A stretch of 9,831 nucleotides of DNA from Vulcanimicrobiota bacterium (GTDB lineage: Bacteria > Vulcanimicrobiota > Vulcanimicrobiia > Vulcanimicrobiales > Vulcanimicrobiaceae): assembly GCA_003133025.1 (NCBI GenBank), contig PKZK01000008.1:1-9831 (forward strand). The letters run 5' to 3'. Below, piece after piece: positions 1 through 9,000 of the stretch. Within the stretch, counting starts at the first letter, position 1, and each line of letters begins with the position of its first letter. Made by a program: the position numbers.

Positions 1-3000
1 GCCGGCGGCGGCCTGACCGGTGCGTTCCACGAGTGGGCAGACGGCGACCGGCACCGCGTCGATCAAAATCTCGGGCCGCGTTTCGAATCGACCTGGCAAC
101 TCGGCTCGCGCGTCTTCGCGCGCGATTCCGACGGCGACGTGCGCGAATTCACCGGCGTCCTGCTGCGGCGCGAGCGCACCGACGACTTCGTCGAATCGGG
201 CGCGTTCGCCAAAGCGCCCGACCGCTGCGTCGCGCGCGGGCAGAGCACGATCGAGGGTCGCAGCGCGTACGCGCTCGACGTGACCGCGCCGGGCGGCGAT
301 ACGGAAACGGTGTACCTCGACGCACAGACGTGGCTACCGCTGCGCTATGTGTACGATGAAGACGACGGTCAGGTGACGGTCGATCTCTCCGATTGGCGCT
401 CGGTCGCAGGCCGGCGCTTCGCGTACCACGTCGTCGGCTCCAACGGCGATCACGACTTCGACCAGATCGAGCGGCTGACGTCGGTGAAATCGGGAACGTC
501 GTTGCCCGCGTCGCTCTTCGCGGTGCCGCCGTCGCATACGATCGAGATGAGGGCGCCGCAGACCGTGTCGCTCGTCTCGCGCGAGGGACATCTCTTCGTG
601 CCCGTGACGCTCGCGGGCAAGACGTACTCGTTCATGCTCGATTCCGGTTCGCAGAGCATCGTCGTCGACAATCGCGTCGCGCGCGCGGCGCACCTCAGCG
701 GCGTGGGCAGCCTCGAAGTGGCCGGCACGCAACGCATGGGCGGCCTGAAGCTCGCGCGCTTGGACCAACTTGGGATCGGTGACGGAACGCTGCACAACGT
801 GGTGGTGACCACGCTGGATCTGGCGGGCGCTTCCGGCGGCGCCTTCAAGATCGACGGCATTCTCGGCTATACGTTCTTCGCGCAGTCGCTGGTGGAGATC
901 GACGGCGGCGCGCTGCGCATGCGCTTCGGACCGCCGGGTTCGTTCGCGCCGCGCGGGGCGCGCGTGGCGGTCGATGTCGACCGCGCGATTCCCGAAGCGA
1001 GGCTGCAGATCAACGGCAACGTCGCCGGTTCGTTTCTGATCGACACGGGCAACTCGGGCGACCTGCTGCTCTACCACCGCTTTCTCGACAATCATCCGGG
1101 CTTGGTTGCGGTGACGCAAAACCGGCGCAGCAGTTTCGGCGTGGGCGGCGCGACCGCGTCGTATCACACCAGCCTCGATCAGTTGCAACTCGGCGATGCG
1201 ACGCTGCACCATGCCGATGCCGATGTGATGGAGGGCACGAGCGGCGCCTTCGCCGACCGCTTCGATGCGGGCAACGTCGGCTTCGGCGTGCTGAAGAATT
1301 TCACGGTCACCTTCGATCTCGCGCAGCGCGCGCTTTATCTCGAGCGCGGGCCCAATTTCGACGACGGTCGCTACCGCTGAGCGTAACGCCGGCGTAACAT
1401 TCCGGTCACGGCGCGGGCACGCCGCGCGACTACGGTGTCGCTGTGAGGGACACCGTGAACGCAGACACCGCCCGCAGCATTGCCGTCATCCGTACGCGGC
1501 TGCCGTACACCGACCGGCGCGCGCTCTCGGAAGCGTGGTATAGCGCGCTCGGCTTACACGACGCGCAAGGAGCCCCGGCGCATTCGTTCGCGCCGGGTTT
1601 CGCACCGGGTGAGAACGTCGCGAGCGCGCGCCCGGCGCGCGGCTCGACCGCGCACGTTTCCGCCGGTACCCCGATGATCGAGGGCCTGCGCGCGCGCTCG
1701 CCGCGCGCATCCGCCGAAAAGCACGAAGCCGCCGTACCCGCTACGGCGGCGCACCGTGAGAAGCGGGCTCCGGCGACGGCGGCGGCCGCGAGCGCGGCGC
1801 GCACGCTGCGGTATCCGCCGATGCATGCCGCCTTCCGGCTGGAACTCGACGGCGGGCGCGTGCACGTCGTCGTGCGCCGCGAAGGCGCGGTGCTGCACGT
1901 CGTCGCGCTGTGCAGCGAGCGGCACGTCGAACGCGTGCGCCGCGCCCTCGGCCTCGCGGCCGAACACCTGCGGTTGCGTGGCGAACTGCTCTCCGCCGAC
2001 GTTCGCGCCTTCGCAAAGACGGAGGGCGCGGCATGATCCCCGATGCTTCCGCCGCCGCATTGCAGCGCATCGCGCAGCGCGCCGACGAATTGCGCCACGC
2101 CTATCGACCCGGTTTCGAGCCGGCCGATGCGCGCGGTCCGCGCTCCACGCACGCCGTCGCTTCGCTCGATCCGTTGAGCGTTGCCGCACCGCCCGAGTGC
2201 TGGTTTGCGTTCGCGACCGCCGCCGGCGTACGCTACGGCCGCGACGGCGGCTTCAGCCTGGCCGACGGAACGCTGCGGGCTCGTGACGGCGCCGGCGTGC
2301 TCGGCCTCGCGCCGGGTGCGACGGCGCTCGGGCCCTTGCGCGTCGACGCCGTCGACGCGGCGCTGGGGCGGGTTGCCGATGCGCGCGTGGATGCCGACGG
2401 CACGCTTTCGTACCTGCGCGTCGCGCTCGATCCGCGCAGCGGCGCACGGCGCAGCGAGCGCGTGGAGGTCGGGCGCATCGCGCTCGCCCGTTTTCCGGCC
2501 GGCACCGAAGCAACGCGCGTTGACGCGGAGCACGTGGGCGCACCGCCGGGCGTCGCACCGCGTTACGGCCGGCCCGGCGATGCCGACTTTCCGGCGCTCC
2601 GTCCGTTCGCACGCGACCTCGGCGCGATCGATCCGCAGAGCGGCGTGCGCCGCTTGCAAGAAGCGTATCTATCGTTCGAAGCGCTGCAAGCCGCCGAACG
2701 GCAACGGCGCGGTTTCGATCGCGTGGCGGGAGATTTGATCAAGTGATCGTCGCGCTCGATTTCGGCAGCCCGGAGACCTTGCCCGACGGCCGGGCCGTGC
2801 GCCCCGCGCGTTTCGTCCCGCGCTCGAGCTTGCCGGCCTCGGCGGCGTGCCTGATCGCCAACGGCGCGCGCGAGCAACTCTCGCGACTCCTCGCGCTCGA
2901 TCTCGAAACGGAGGTGAGCGAACCGGCCGTGCTCGATGCGCGCGCGCGCACGGTGCTCTTCGCCGGAGGCTACGCGTATCGCGTGCGCGGCCACGGCTGC

Positions 3001-6000: not shown

Positions 6001-9000
6001 GGCGCCGGCCGTTTCGTCGCATGCCGTCGTGCCCCGCGGCGCGGCGTTTCCGTTTGCGCTCGCGGCCGAAACGGCGCTCGGCGCGGCGCTGGGCACCGCG
6101 GCCTCNNTTTACGGCCGGCTTTTTCACGCTCGGCGGCGACAGGCTCGCGCTCGACGCGTTCGCGCAAGGCTTCGTCGCGATCCCGCCCGGCGCGCTCGCG
6201 ACCGCGCCGCAACTCGGCCTCTTCGCGCTCGCGCTGCCGGGCGTGTTGGTGCACGCGGCGCTGTTCATCGGGGGTCCGGCGTTCGCGTGCGCCTTCGCCG
6301 GGCAGATCGCGCTTGCGGCGCTGGCGCGCGTGGTGCCGCGACTCGCGCCGTTTACGCTGTCGTTCGGCGTGGCGTTCGCCTTCGCGCTCGCGGCCACGTT
6401 GCTGAGCTTGCCCGCCATCGTGCCCGCGGCCGCGCGTCCGTGGCTCGTGCCGCTCGGGCCGCACTGACTCGCGATGGCGAACGATAAGCCGTTCGAGGCG
6501 ACGCCGCAACGGCTCGAGCGCGCGCGGCGCGACGGCGACCTGCCGCGTGCCGGCGAGTTCGTCGCGCTCGGCGCTTTCGCGGGCGGTGGCCTCGGCTGTG
6601 CGCTCGCGGCCGCTCCCCTCGCGGCCCTCGCGCGACTGGGCATCGTGGCTGCGGCGCACGGCGGCGTCCCCGCCTGGTTCGGTTGGGCGTGCGCGTTGTC
6701 GCTGCTGCCCGCACTGGGGGCTGCGGCGGGCGGCGTGCTGGCCTTCGTCGCGGTGCAGGGCCGCATCGGCGTACGTAGGCTCACGTTCGATGCGTCGCGA
6801 CTGGCGCCGCAGGCGGGGCTGCAGCGCATGTTTTCGCGCGATACGGCGCTGGGCATCGGGCGCGCTGCCGTCGCGGGCGTGGCACTCGCCGCGGCGTTCG
6901 TGCCGCTCCTGCTCGATGCACTCGATCTCGTGCGCGGGCCGGCCACGCCCGAGCGTCTAGCCGCGAGCATGCTCTCGGCCGCCACGCGCATCGTGCTGAC
7001 GGCGCTCATCGCGGGCGCACTGCTGGGCACGCTCGACCTCGTGTGGGCGCGCGCGTCGTGGCGGCGCCGCCTGCGCTTGAACCATGCGGAGATGAAAGCG
7101 GAACTGCGCAGCAGCGAAGGCGATCCGCTGCTGCGCGGGCGGCGGCGGCGCGCGCACGGCGGCCAGCGAGCTGCAGCAGCTGGCCGAGAGCCTCGATGCA
7201 CCCGTGGTCATGACCGTCAACGCACGCGGCCTGTTGCCGCCGCAGCATCCACTCGCGGTGTCCTGTAGCCCATCGCTGGGGCCAGTGCGCGCGATGATTG
7301 CCGCCGCGGACGTCGTGCTTGCGGTCGGCACTGAACTCGGGCCCACCGACTACGACCTGTATTCCACCGACGATTTTCCGCCGCTGGCGCAGCTGATCCG
7401 CATCGATGTGGAGGCACAGCAGCTCGAGCGTAATGCGCACGCCGCGCTGGCGTTGCGTGGACACGCGCGCGAGACCCTGCGCGCGCTACTGGCGGCTTGC
7501 GACGCCGCGACCGCGCGCTCGAGCGGACCGGTGCGTGCCGGTGCTGGCGTTGCGCACACGGCTCGCAGCGAGGCGCTCGCGCTGCTGAGCGCGCCCATGC
7601 GCCGGCAGATCGCGGTCCTGGAATGCATACGCGAGCAGCTTCCCGACGCGATCCTGGTCGGGGATTCGACGCAGCCGGTCTACGCCGGCAACCTGGGCTT
7701 CGCCGCCGCCACACCGGGCTCATGGTTCAACAGCGCCACCGGCTATGGCACACTGGGCTATGCGCTGCCCGCCTCGAACGGCGCCGGATTGGGCGCGCCG
7801 GCGCGCCCGGTCGTGTGCCTCGTGGGCGACGGCGGCTTCCAGTTCTCGCTGCCAGAGCTCGCGGTAGCACGCGACATTGACGCCTGGACCGCCATCGTGC
7901 TCTGGAACAACCATGGCTACGGCGAGATCAAATCCTCCATGCTGGCGGTGGGCATCGAACCCGAAGGCGTGGACGTGCGGCCGCCGGAATTCCCGGCCAT
8001 CGCCCGCGCCTACGGCTGCGCGTATCGCCTGATCGACAGCATGGAGGGGCTCGAGCGTGCGCTGGTGGATTTCGCCGCGCACCGCCAGGTGCTCATGCTC
8101 GAGGTGCGGGCCGAGTCCTTTGACCAGGCCAGCCGCTGACTAGGGAAGCTGCGCGGCGAGATCCCAGCGCAGGGGCGCGATCCGCGGCAGAATCCACAGC
8201 CAACCCACCAGTCCCAGCACGTTGACGGAAGCTGCAAGCACGAATGCACTGTTGAAGCTCCCGGTCGCATCGACCAGCAGGCCGGTGATGACCGGCGCGA
8301 GGATGCCGGCGACGTTGGCGCAGGTGTTCTGAACTCCAACCCAGCGCCCGGCAGCGGTCGGACCCGCCATGATCTGCGGGATCGCGAACACACCGGGCGA
8401 GGACAGTCCGACCACGACCTGATAGGCGAACAGGCACCCCACCGAACCCGCAACCGGCAGCAGAACCATGCCGGCCATGGCTGCGATCGATGCCACGTGC
8501 GCCAGCACCATCGTCGATTTGTAGGCGACGCTGGCCGAACGTCCCGATCGGATCCAGACATCGGTTGCCCAGCCGCTGAACAATGCGGCGGCGGCATTGA
8601 TCAGGTAGGCAAATCCAGCCACGCCGGCCATCGAATGCATCGAGAAGCCCCGTACCTTGACCAGGTACAGGGGCAGCCAGGCGAGAATGAAGTAATAGTT
8701 GTAGTTGGAGGCGAAGTGCCCCAGCGCCGTGCCCCACAGTCCACGCGCGCGCAGAATCTGCGGGAAGGTCGGCCCGTCGGCAGCGGAGCCTTTGATACGC
8801 ACCGCCGGCCCTGCAAGCCGCAGTCGCATCCAGGGCCACAACCACAGCAGCGATAGCGCCCCGAACAGCATGAACACCGCTCGCCAGCCGAGCTGGCTCA
8901 TCAGGATACCGCCCAGAACCGTTCCCACTGCCGGGCCCAGCAGATAGCCGAAGGCCATCATGCCGTTGGCGCTGCCGATCTGCGCCGGCGCCACGGCTAC

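Follow-up and report, generated by a model that had tools for sequence, protein, structure and literature searches.

Gene content and order

The window, by which we mean the whole stretch of 9,831 nucleotides analysed here, is contig C190 of an Eremiobacterota metagenome-assembled genome from peat soil that is 80% complete. It carries, on the + strand, a double retropepsin gene followed by two small genes, two FliMN_C genes, fliP, metF, fliQ, fliR and a truncated copy of flhB; Pfam and codon-usage gene calls agree in content and order with what the genome-wide survey's note had listed. The other parts named there were found as well: on C250 a flgB/C-like (Flg_bbr_C) gene, fliE and fliF fused to a FliG middle-domain stub (FliG_M covering residues 424-471 of a total of 488; Pfam and gene calls), and on C81 two rod genes with a FliA/WhiG-type sigma factor gene (Pfam profiles).

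In closed relatives the cluster runs flgC-like, fliE, fliF (with the FliG_M stub), fliH, fliI-like, (SLT), retropepsin, unkA, unkB, fliM-like, fliN, fliP, metF, fliQ, fliR, flhB, flhA, secD and secF. This order is identical in G004, G006, G009, G015, G010 and also G150, with secD and secF after flhA in all five of those that were read beyond flhA (G004, G006, G009, G015 and G150). In G005 it is kept from the flgC-like gene to fliN, and other genes then intervene ahead of fliP.

The proposed continuation of C250 into C190 holds for the gene order and not for direct adjacency. C250 does not end after fliF, as had been claimed, and a 145-aa FliH-like ORF, open at its 3' end, comes next; judging by the relatives, the gap between both contigs contains the remainder of fliH, a ~419-aa fliI-like gene and the N terminus of the retropepsin. 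At the other side of the cluster, frame translations place the end of FlhB homology at ~7155-7161, the remainder of that frame (6474-7268) does not encode FlhB, and a fragment of a TPP enzyme lacking its N terminus begins at ~7163. Contigs from two other DNA runs agree with the window as far as 7161, beyond which their next 774 and 56 nt are dissimilar to it. The GGCGGCGGC-rich stretch at 7135..7165 (no strand), with FlhB on its left and the N-terminally truncated TPP enzyme on its right, is a probable chimeric assembly join; C190 is probably chimeric at ~7161, and the end of flhB and flhA would therefore have been lost to assembly. The genes that follow flhA in relatives (secD, secF and a HIRAN helicase) are on C240, where secD starts 84 nt from the contig end. 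The survey had reported flhA as not assembled, and indeed no FHIPEP (FlhA) match was found in this 80%-complete genome, which is a matter of assembly and not a biological absence.

Retropepsin and axial proteins

The first gene (1..1380, +), truncated at its 5' end by the contig end, encodes a double retropepsin-like protein (clan AA aspartic protease; Pfam Asp_protease_2, 70.5 bits, two stretches) with the motifs DSGS at residue 214 and DTGN at residue 348. It has the same cluster position in the six relatives examined, and the full-length orthologues of G004 and G010 have hydrophobic, signal-peptide-like N termini.

Of the two genes that the survey left as unknowns, one could be assigned and the other provides a lead only. 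The first, unkA (1443..2036, +), is a small conserved protein, its orthologues lying directly upstream of unkB in relatives, with a DRRALSQAWYSAL motif at the N terminus, a disordered middle and an alpha/beta domain at the C terminus. The nearest named cluster in an Atlas feature search was HpaP (score 0.92), fold searches gave nothing specific, the comparison with FliK of the same phylum reached an hhalign probability of 0.09%, and one of seven members matched Flg_hook (E 0.065). Its dN/dS is 0.44, a rough value. It may be a switch protein of the FliK/SctP type.

The second, unkB (2033..2746, +; 237 aa), is an axial protein of the FlgE/FlgF/FlgG type consisting of a D1 domain and terminal helices, without D2, and is located at the flgE position of the operon. 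The profile of seven orthologues matched solved FlgE chains with an E value of 1.4e-9 over both halves of D1, and Pfam LlgE_F_G_D1 was detected in six of the seven orthologues, the window's own copy being unmatched. The description of the system as being without a hook has to be corrected accordingly, at least as far as a FlgE/FlgG-type axial protein is concerned.

Switch proteins and the FliF-FliG stub

The same applies to the claimed lack of FliM. The first FliMN_C gene (2743..3525, +; FliMN_C 29.3 bits) encodes a 260-aa protein in which a middle domain resembling CheC is followed by a SpoA domain at the C terminus, and which is not matched by the Pfam FliM model. With its AlphaFold model (pLDDT 78.6) as query, Foldseek ranked the C-ring FliM of Salmonella first (E 1e-8) and also recovered middle domains of FliM with TM scores of 0.56-0.62, i.e. 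the protein models as a divergent FliM. It is followed by an 82-aa FliN (3522..3770, +; FliMN_C 91.6 bits), whose G004 orthologue exceeds the TIGR02480 fliN cut-off (87.2 vs 84.05).

The survey was right about the FliG torque domain, neither FliG_N nor FliG_C being found in the cluster with Pfam. What is left of FliG is the stub at the C terminus of the MS-ring protein FliF, with an invariant EPPH motif that occupies the place of the EHPQ FliM-binding motif of FliG.

Export gate, metF and a hairpin

As the note had indicated, fliP and fliR are cut by NN joints. The one in fliP (3767..4304, +; Pfam FliP, 141 bits up to the joint), at 4234-4235, hides ~32 codons, and tblastn of the G004 FliP on the window covers residues 9-166 and 199-220. 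The one in fliR (5873..6467, +; Bac_export_1, 42.7 bits over the first 77 residues), at 6106-6107, hides 124 nt; tblastn covers both halves, and contigs of two DNA runs bridge the joint with 124 letters between 6105 and 6108. Between both genes lies fliQ (5607..5876, +; Bac_export_3, 64.1 bits). The flhB copy (6474..7161, +) represents the N-terminal two thirds (Bac_export_2 model positions 2-236 of 335) and lacks the NPTH domain; in relatives FlhB has 322-338 aa and is followed by flhA. NPTH was kept in eight of the nine FlhB sequences checked. In the FlhB of flagella, this motif serves the substrate switch.

The embedding of metF (methylenetetrahydrofolate reductase; 4437..5369, +; MTHFR, 320 bits) between fliP and fliQ was confirmed, with the same position in G004, G006, G009, G015, G010 and G150. 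It is the only MTHFR match in four of four closed family genomes, and tblastn with MetF found no other copy in this one. A terminator-like hairpin of nine pairs (eight G-C) with a T-rich tail (5393..5413, +) lies 24 nt past metF; it was the top site of a terminator scan that gave 9 sites vs 6.4 +/- 2.8 in shuffles, and is therefore only a hint.

Two paralogous sets in the phylum

Among 265 genomes of the phylum (the present one and 264 with a completeness of 90% or more), FlhA was found in 250 and flagellin in 102. Within the family, 178 of the 191 genomes at least 90% complete have FlhA and 111 are devoid of Flagellin_N. FlhA is present in 17/18, 4/4 and 14/14 genomes of families f3, f4 and f18, and flagellin in 0/18, 0/4 and 0/14; in genus g34 the figures are 54/59 and 0/59.

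Five of five closed flagellin-bearing relatives have two FlhA, one 58-63% and the other 36-40% identical to the reduced-type FlhA. In the closed genome G150 the reduced cluster coexists with a full canonical one (FliG N/M/C, FlgE with D2, MotA, MotB, FliM and CheA). These observations bear out the notion of a separate, conserved paralogous set, present with or without a canonical flagellum. The FlhA tree (quick IQ-TREE, 39 FlhA/SctV sequences, SH-aLRT only, and a 31-row version), based on a single marker protein with skewed composition in many rows, shows two apparently old flagellar paralogue sets. Reduced-type FlhA forms one clade (100; topology f3|(f2|f1), stem 0.84), sister (100) to the well-conserved FlhA of five other families and apart from both the canonical f1/f2 FlhA and five SctV. 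Judged by these sequences, the reduced set is a fast-evolving branch of type b, one of two ancient sets; type a is the ordinary motile flagellum, present in part of the genomes only. Genomes with type b alone are devoid of flagellin, as in the three families and the genus counted above. The order is kept across three families of one class, and the set is less reduced in f18; the tree suggests that it may be retained likewise in other classes of the phylum.

A probable basal body and export apparatus without a filament

The most probable interpretation, in our opinion, is that the window is the centre of a conserved Eremiobacterota cluster of ~16 kb that encodes a reduced basal body together with a type III export apparatus, both derived from a flagellum. 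This genome encodes FliF, the divergent FliM, FliN, FliP/Q/R, FlhB, FlgC-like and FliE, as well as two FlgF/G-like rod proteins, the D1-only FlgE-like protein and a FliA-type sigma factor; C250 ends within FliH, and the FliI-like ATPase and FlhA, seen in relatives, fall into assembly gaps. FliM/FliN and FliH/FliI would dock straight onto the FliG_M stub borne by FliF, and the gate would export the rod and short FlgE-like subunits, which would form a periplasmic rod or stub. Such an apparatus would be unable to rotate and would have no filament, so that selection would retain it for a non-swimming purpose, most likely protein export or a structural or assembly task in the envelope. We infer from gene content, as the survey did, a "secretion or envelope-spanning device". 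RNA-library contigs (two runs with identical numbers, counted as one) match the operon at four places, three mismatch-free and one (1951-2101) with two mismatches; one is identical to the window at 2107-2257, within unkB, and another spans the fliN/fliP overlap (3664-3910). They are a hint of expression that carried-over DNA could also explain. Flagellar export systems without flagellin are already known in Lysobacter and Buchnera; the reduced set resembles them in this respect, as read here from the genes.

A regulatory or membrane-biogenesis role, rather than the secretion of dedicated substrates, appears rather unlikely. Export of an anti-sigma factor by the apparatus could serve as a checkpoint for release of the FliA-type sigma factor, or the cluster could form a core complex comparable to the nanotube machinery or to the inner-membrane "hat" structures related to fT3SS. 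The rod-rod-FliA operon is conserved, with a small downstream ORF, in the five flagellin-less genomes tested, FlhB retains NPTH, and fT3SS-related non-flagellar structures are on record (bioRxiv 10.1101/2021.09.03.458937). However, neither Pfam nor NCBIfam gave a match for the small ORF, FlgM included, this genome yielded no promoter of the sigma-28 consensus, and the full rod genes with the FlgE-like gene point to an axial structure and not to a bare core.

That the cluster is a functionless relic of a lost flagellum, its genes drifting to pseudogenes, is very improbable, as the survey had also argued. Many parts are missing, most components score under the NCBIfam equivalog cut-offs of flagellar and injectisome families alike, the stem of the reduced-type FlhA clade is long, and one f3 FliF has an in-frame TGA. 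Five of the 59 g34 genomes have no FlhA, and of the 31 searched for the FlgE-like gene three, all among those five, lack it; the whole system has been lost in some species and is therefore dispensable in some lineages. Yet of the 28 copies of that gene 27 are unbroken and one is split, and median dN/dS values of 0.24 for it (from 249/351 usable pairs) and of 0.29 for the FliM-like gene (from 211/300) speak against decay, although dS is ~1.2, near saturation, and the values are therefore rough. The retained order, the conserved NPTH and EPPH motifs and the location of the sole metF within the cluster are also difficult to reconcile with a relic.

Even less credible is an ordinary swimming flagellum whose filament, stator and rotor genes were unassembled in the MAGs or too divergent for the models. 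This genome is incomplete, and the absences are based on Pfam models, which very divergent versions could escape. However, the canonical versions in the phylum are easily found (120-140 bits), and the best Flagellin_N match here has an E value of only 0.63, in keeping with the claimed lack of a flagellin gene. The closed single-contig genomes G004, G006 and G015 have neither Flagellin_N nor FlgI, and G004 and G006 no MotB_plug (Pfam). In line with the claimed lack of a stator, MotB_plug was found in none of five type-b-only genomes; the P-ring protein FlgI was found in one of five genomes tested, the one with the canonical set. Flagellin is absent throughout g34, and fliF directly abuts fliH with no fliG between. 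The description of a cultured relative, Vulcanimicrobium alpinus, reports no flagella by electron microscopy and no flagellin gene, and its gene table (Table S8) includes a fliN (PMC9758169).

That the cluster is an injectisome (non-flagellar type III secretion system), or directly ancestral to one, is scarcely conceivable and was rejected: some G004 proteins score slightly higher on injectisome models (FliI-like ATPase, 332 for SctN vs 305 bits; FlhB, 207 for SctU vs 191; FliR, 74 for SctT vs 70), but FlhA, FliP, FliQ and FliN do better on flagellar ones, FlhA branches within the flagellar part of the tree and away from five SctV (support 100), the presence of rod proteins, FliE and FliM is a hallmark of flagella, and secretin, SctD and needle genes were not found in the cluster.

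The flagellum-derived apparatus, having no filament, stator or torque-generating rotor domain, therefore probably serves something other than swimming, and most of the phylum would have kept this reduced version of the basal body and export machine of flagella.

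Gene content and integrity of the contig

Gene calling with a codon-usage caller trained on the whole genome (G000), combined with Pfam, confirmed in this window the gene set of a reduced flagellar-type export apparatus that the genome-wide survey's note had described. The genes of the set all lie on the plus strand and start with a double Asp_protease_2 protein (a retropepsin, 1-1380, open at its 5' end), followed by the two genes that the note had left as unknowns, unkA (1443-2036) and unkB (2033-2746, 237 aa), a 260-aa protein (2743-3525) whose FliMN_C match is weak at 29.3 bits, fliN (3522-3770), fliP (3767-4304), metF (4437-5369, MTHFR at 320 bits over model positions 2-285 of 287), fliQ (5607-5876), fliR (5873-6467) and flhB (from 6474), with fliP, fliQ, fliR and flhB identified by Pfam. 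The five successive genes from unkA to fliP have four-base overlaps, suggesting an operon; the terminator-like hairpin after metF (5393-5413) is to be taken as a hint only. The two NN joints, at 4234-4235 and 6106-6107, were confirmed, and hide ~32 FliP residues and 124 nt of fliR. Since each of them conceals ~100-124 nt of real sequence, other genes of this genome (3.35 Mb in 265 contigs, 80% complete, ~70% G+C) may be silently shortened likewise. The assembly contains 411 N runs, three of them in the inspected contigs (the window's own C190, C250 and C81), all two letters long.

Further parts of the set were found on two other contigs of the same genome. C250 carries a Flg_bbr_C gene, fliE, fliF with a FliG_M stub and then the first 145 residues of a further ORF, and C81 two FlgF/G-like rod genes and the gene of a FliA/WhiG-type sigma factor. 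The cluster order in relatives makes C250 and the window neighbours, yet not adjacent ones: by that order the gap between them holds the end of fliH, a fliI-like gene and the N-terminus of the retropepsin. No fliI-like gene is assembled anywhere in the genome, and genome-wide searches gave no FHIPEP match and no credible Flagellin_N match (best E 0.63).

The homology to FlhB ends in the window at model position 236 of 335, and at ~7135-7165, a GGCGGCGGC-rich stretch (GGC-repeat), the reading changes from FlhB to a TPP enzyme whose N-terminal third is missing. Two other DNA runs yielded contigs that agree with the window as far as 7161 exactly, beyond which they continue with unlike sequence for 774 and 56 nt. 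In addition, a third contig of the genome (C240) carries secD, secF and a helicase gene, the downstream neighbours of flhA in relatives, with secD starting 84 nt from the contig end. Taken together, these observations point to a loss of flhA and of the flhB end in assembly, and both are most likely present in the organism. The contig is probably chimeric, and only 1-7161 belongs to the system. The remaining part (7163-9831), which carries the TPP enzyme without its N-terminal domain, a fragment of a class II aldolase and, on the minus strand, an MFS transporter, was probably joined to the flagellar part by mis-assembly at the GGC-repeat.

A conserved cluster in relatives

One common gene order was found in six relatives (G004, G006, G009, G015, G010 and G150). 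It begins with a small ORF, a flgC-like gene, fliE and fliF with the FliG_M stub, followed by fliH (a Pfam FliH match in G006), a fliI-like ATPase of ~419 aa, in some genomes only an SLT lytic transglycosylase, and then the double retropepsin, unkA, unkB, the FliMN_C protein and fliN. The 3' part consists of fliP, metF, fliQ, fliR, flhB (322-338 aa) and flhA (~679 aa, FHIPEP at 630 bits). All five genomes in which the region after flhA was read have secD and secF there, followed in G004, G006 and G150 by a HIRAN helicase gene. A further relative, G005, keeps the common order from the flgC-like gene to fliN, and other genes intervene before fliP. The cluster order resembles the Bacillus arrangement flgB-flgC-fliE-fliF-fliG-fliH-fliI...flgE...fliM-fliY...fliP-Q-R-flhB-flhA, and unkB occupies the position of flgE in operons of this type. 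Among 72 records with unkB-encoding loci, the titles of 65 name Eremiobacterota/Vulcanimicrobiota lineages, three name Acidiferrales and four have no lineage name.

The orthologue of the embedded metF in G004 scores 322.6 bits on TIGR00676, above the curated cut-off (293.7). In the closed genomes of the family (4/4) the cluster copy is the sole MTHFR gene, and part of the cluster must therefore be transcribed.

Outside the window's family (f1 in what follows; other families of the phylum are likewise given as f2, f3 and so on) the cluster takes other forms. In G026 (f3) it is shorter, with a 157-aa ORF, FlgE-like and FliM-like genes, fliN, fliP, fliQ, fliR, flhB, flhA, secD and secF, and metF is absent from it. 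A less reduced version was found in G263 (f18), with, in this order, a rod gene, FliF, a full FliG (N, M and C domains), FliH, FliI, FliJ, SLT, FliK, a 76-aa ORF, a 272-aa D1-only FlgE-like gene, a full FliM, two FliN, FliO, FliP/Q/R, FlhB and FlhA.

Several neighbouring genes deserve mention. A GAF-PAS adenylate/guanylate cyclase on C250 (locus L001, 1661-3355, minus strand) is divergent from the cluster start; it is kept there in G004 and G010 (52-60% identity) and not in the other examined relatives. On C81 (locus L002), sepF, divIVA and a GvpL/GvpF gas-vesicle gene are grouped upstream of the rod genes (2207-4014), and a Uma2-family endonuclease gene (6814-7386) separates the second rod gene from the sigma gene, which it does not do in the three closed family relatives examined. 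Right after the FliA-type sigma gene there is a small ORF (8392-8706) with orthologues at loci L153-L155, which shares 43-55% identity over the last 60-77 residues with those of three flagellin-less genomes and matches no known family; a FlgM-like anti-sigma factor is one possibility.

Hook, rotor and export proteins

The note had described the apparatus as lacking hook and FliM, and both statements have to be withdrawn. When seven unkB orthologues were combined into a profile, it matched solved FlgE chains (E 1.4e-9) in two segments, one for each half of domain D1, and Pfam LlgE_F_G_D1 was found in six of the seven orthologues (best E 6.6e-7), the window copy itself giving no match to this model at E up to 0.1. 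Pfam gave no Flg_bb_rod or Flg_bbr_C match for unkB; by eye, its C-terminal consensus ...DLDAGLxRLQEAYLAFDAL... resembles the rod C-terminal helix. With 237 aa the protein has no room for D2, and no FlgE_D2 or FlgD match was obtained among the cluster proteins scanned with Pfam. The axial proteins present are FlgC-like, FliE, two FlgF/G-like and this short, D1-only FlgE-like protein.

The 260-aa protein was examined through its AlphaFold model (pLDDT 78.6, ~90 over residues 30-180). The best Foldseek match was Salmonella FliM in the C ring (E 1e-8, ~276 columns), followed by FliM middle domains (TM 0.56-0.62) and CheC. Neither the window protein nor either of two orthologues matched Pfam FliM (PF02154) at E up to 0.01; the FliM of the G263 cluster does match this model, with 106 bits. 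The fold matches, together with the FliMN_C domain, indicate a FliM homologue too divergent for the Pfam FliM model, and by its predicted structure the protein is a divergent FliM with a CheC-like middle domain followed by a SpoA domain. Used as a query, the window protein found none of seven in f3, though this family has a divergent copy, so that this count is not a measure of absence.

A further departure from the flagellar rotor is at the C terminus of FliF, which ends, over residues ~415-488, in a stub that is near-invariant in six orthologues (...EPPHAAAAIISALPAATAAAVLELYP.EER.AI..R...). The stub corresponds to Pfam FliG_M positions 2-49 of 76, is fused to FliF and is directly followed by fliH; the cluster has no FliG_N and no FliG_C match. 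This region is the part of FliG with the EHPQ motif that binds FliM, and the divergent FliM may dock on it. The fusion occurs in f1 and f2 and is absent in f4, with f3 uncertain; in f3 FliF has no Pfam FliG_M match, though the profile aligns to position 473-478. The FliF match of G026 (f3, locus L195, C2:139630-140979) contains one in-frame TGA.

For the export apparatus, the NPTH autocleavage motif of FlhB was found in eight of nine relatives (G004 did not match the pattern used), and the window FlhB ends before the site. In five genomes of other families (G034, G263, G037, G044 and G239; loci L143-L147 and L149) there are open frames of ~380-500 aa whose only FHIPEP match is to the C-terminal cytoplasmic half (model positions ~321-656); they look like stand-alone FlhA-C paralogues.

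In the unkA protein an invariant DRRxLSxAW motif and a disordered stretch in the middle precede a small alpha/beta domain at the C terminus (model pLDDT 55.9). An assignment to FliK was tried and was not borne out: hhalign against the FliK of G263 gave a probability of 0.09%, a PDB profile search was not supportive, Pfam Flg_hook appeared in only one of seven members (E 0.065), Foldseek found no match at E up to 0.001 and a wide VIA-align search returned generic ferredoxin-like folds (Z up to 9.2). The nearest named cluster in an Atlas feature search was HpaP (score 0.92, a language-model neighbour). From its position and this neighbour only, FliK/SctP is a lead as to what unkA might be.

A system separate from the canonical flagellum

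A way to separate the reduced set from an ordinary flagellum is to look at closed genomes that contain both. In G150 the cluster described here is located at 1.79-1.81 Mb and a canonical cluster at 3.19-3.23 Mb, the latter with full FliG, a 504-aa FlgE with D2, MotA, MotB, full FliM, FliY and CheA. All five closed flagellin-bearing genomes of the family have two FlhA, one with 58-63% and the other with 36-40% identity to the reduced-type FlhA of G004. The same two-FlhA pattern was found in f2, and f3 has a single copy (48% identity). The reduced set is a separate system from the canonical flagellum.

The distribution was established in 265 genomes of the phylum, 264 of them at least 90% complete plus G000 at 80% (six are unpublished and enter the totals only). 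FlhA was found in 250 of the 265 and Flagellin_N in 102. The respective numbers were 178 and 80 of 191 in f1, four and four of four in f2, 17 and none of 18 in f3, four and none of four in f4, and 14 and none of 14 in f18; the flagellin-less genus g34 has FlhA in 54 and Flagellin_N in none of its 59 genomes. The pattern reported in the note is the same, with figures (62/188 and 47/131) that differ from the present ones. By hand count, the flagellin-bearing genomes of f1 are, with few exceptions, those with a second FlhA of ~860 bits. Hereafter we call the ordinary motile flagellum type a and the old paralogous set, which includes the reduced one, type b. MotB_plug was found in none of five type-b-only genomes (G004, G006, G026, G263 and G033), the type-b-only families likewise have no flagellin, a separate search in them being negative in 5/5 genomes, and FlgI was found in one of five genomes only, G150.

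For the phylogeny we have used 39 FlhA/SctV sequences in a quick maximum likelihood analysis (LG+C20, SH-aLRT only), with FlhA of E. coli, Ralstonia, Sulfitobacter, Bacillus and a Rhizobium plasmid and five SctV as references. The tree is based on one marker protein and a quick search, with many rows of skewed composition, and the wide G+C range of the phylum can distort protein trees. The L122 region of G033 (f4) has ~39% G+C, vs ~70% in the window's family. A group of its own (support 100) is formed by the five SctV and the Rhizobium plasmid gene. Clade A (95) combines the canonical FlhA of f1 and f2 with a single copy from each of f6, f12 and f16. The reduced-type FlhA of f3, f2 and f1 form one clade (100) with a long stem (0.84) and an internal order that follows taxonomy; this clade lies inside clade B (100), where its sister is formed by short-branched FlhA of f4, f18, f6, f12 and f16. 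The reduced set is accordingly the rapidly evolving branch within type b, an old second flagellar lineage.

Maintenance and signs of expression

In genus g34 the FlgE-like gene is present in 28 of 31 genomes, unbroken in 27 and split in one. The split copy is that of G094, where the gene lies in two adjacent pieces (L190/L191). Three genomes (G092, G115 and G130) have neither the FlgE-like gene nor FlhA, so that a few species have lost the whole system. Median pairwise dN/dS (Nei-Gojobori; usable pairs with dS 0.05-1.5 for FlgE-like) was 0.24 for FlgE-like (249 of 351 pairs), 0.29 for FliM-like (211 of 300) and 0.44 for unkA (32 of 55), values that are rough because dS is ~1.2; every pair was below 0.66. 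The operon of two rod genes and FliA is kept in all five flagellin-less genomes, which belong to three families.

At least half of the window's sampled words occur in each of 18 DNA runs (peat, moss and permafrost). Short contigs from an RNA library, which is filed as two runs with identical numbers and so counts once, match the window without mismatch at 2107-2257, 2747-2897 and 3664-3910, and with two mismatches at 1951-2101. These contigs are a hint that the window is transcribed, DNA carry-over being possible, and parts without cover are not evidence of silence. A sigma-28 scan of the genome (TAAA-N14-16-(G)CCGATA) gave no strict and no medium matches and 26 loose ones; a sigma-70 scan of 1-7300 gave no sites, and terminator-like sites were not enriched.

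Comparison with known systems

The set shares with the canonical flagellum (Terrabacteria-type fla operon) the common core of FliF, FliH/I, FliM/N, FliP/Q/R, FlhB/A, FlgC, FliE, FlgF/G and FliA, and its FlhA branches among flagellar FlhA. It differs in that type-b-only genomes have no flagellin, MotB or FlgI, in that FliG is a middle-domain stub fused to FliF, in a hook protein with D1 only and no D2, in a FliM beyond the Pfam model, and in the presence of metF and a double retropepsin inside the cluster. The known dual flagellar systems (such as polar and lateral sets) also consist of two ancient paralogous sets in one genome, both of which build motile flagella, whereas here one set is without filament, stator and torque domain.

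Remnants of a flagellum with other roles are already known. The non-flagellated, free-living soil bacterium Lysobacter enzymogenes OH11 has no functional flagellin and keeps and expresses its FT3SS genes, of which FliI and FlhB are needed to secrete a protease, a glucanase and another protein (PMC7688988). There, the remnant is that of the only flagellar set and concerns one genus, whereas in the Eremiobacterota a phylum-wide paralogous set with a remodelled rotor exists beside a full flagellum in many genomes. Similarly, Buchnera aphidicola has basal-body and export genes without filament, and the complexes are abundant (PMC8109811). Buchnera, however, is a reduced-genome endosymbiont with a single remnant set; the Eremiobacterota are free-living peat and soil bacteria with genomes of 2-5 Mb, a second paralogous set and the FliF-FliG_M fusion.

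The injectisome (NF-T3SS), itself derived from the flagellum (PMC3459982), is alike in that its export apparatus does not rotate and comes with an ATPase and a platform of SpoA proteins in the cytoplasm. Most parts of the set score below the NCBIfam equivalog cut-offs of both flagellar and injectisome families, with the flagellar model ahead for FlhA (TIGR01398 610 bits vs TIGR01399 SctV 468) and FliP (221 vs 173), and the injectisome model slightly ahead for the ATPase (SctN 332 vs FliI 305) and FlhB (SctU 207 vs 191). The reduced FlhA falls outside the SctV clade, rod, FliE and FliM are kept, and no secretin SctC, inner ring SctD or needle SctF was found among the cluster genes scanned with Pfam. 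The scores, the FlhA tree and the rod, FliE and FliM show the set to be a divergent derivative of the flagellum rather than an injectisome.

Structures related to the fT3SS and described as 'hats' have also been reported (bioRxiv 10.1101/2021.09.03.458937). Within the phylum, Vulcanimicrobium alpinus WC8-2 showed no flagella by EM, has no flagellin gene and performs pilus-based phototaxis, and the only such gene in its gene table (Table S8) is a fliN, WPS_28550 (PMC9758169). A paper on Chloroflexota includes Eremiobacterota, in its accessible text, only as neighbours in flagellar gene trees (PMC10284905), and an ocean-microbiome paper ran TXSScan on Eudoremicrobiaceae (PMC9259500). A literature search on Eremiobacterota, Eremiobacter or WPS-2 and flagella gave no description of this system. 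New here are a paralogous lineage that spans the phylum, a graded rotor loss that ends in the FliF-FliG_M fusion, a minimal FlgE-like protein and the presence of metF and the retropepsin inside the cluster.

Biological meaning

The note's interpretation is supported in part. Its core, a conserved paralogous system apart from the canonical flagellum, agrees with these results, once a short hook-like protein and a divergent FliM are added and the missing flhA is attributed to assembly; the secretion or envelope-spanning device that the note proposes is a possible role. We consider it likely that selection maintains the set as a flagellar-type basal body and export apparatus that neither rotates nor carries a filament. 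More tentatively, and with doubts that outweigh our confidence, type b could be an ancient second flagellar lineage of the whole phylum that lost filament and stator long ago, persisted as a non-rotary nanomachine and was further rebuilt in one class. In this class the MS-ring protein would carry its own FliM-docking FliG_M stub, and the FliF-borne stub would provide a rotor-less attachment of the cytoplasmic sorting platform, a path that may be an independent parallel to the one from flagellum to injectisome. The task of such a machine would be the export of non-flagellar proteins or the construction of a structure in the periplasm or envelope.

The injectisome and a few remnants (Buchnera, Lysobacter) are the main known examples of flagellar export put to non-swimming uses. 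In the present case a phylum that is abundant in peat, moss and soil keeps a filament-less, stator-less paralogue under purifying selection, often beside a normal flagellum. In annotation, flagellar export genes in these genomes should not be taken to indicate motility. The phylum has one cultured member, Vulcanimicrobium alpinus, and if it carries the cluster the question becomes testable. The series from a full FliG (f18) to a FliG_M stub fused to FliF (f1, f2 and perhaps f3) is a natural dissection of the rotor parts required for export and those required for torque, and may represent a living analogue of the first step in the evolution of the injectisome.
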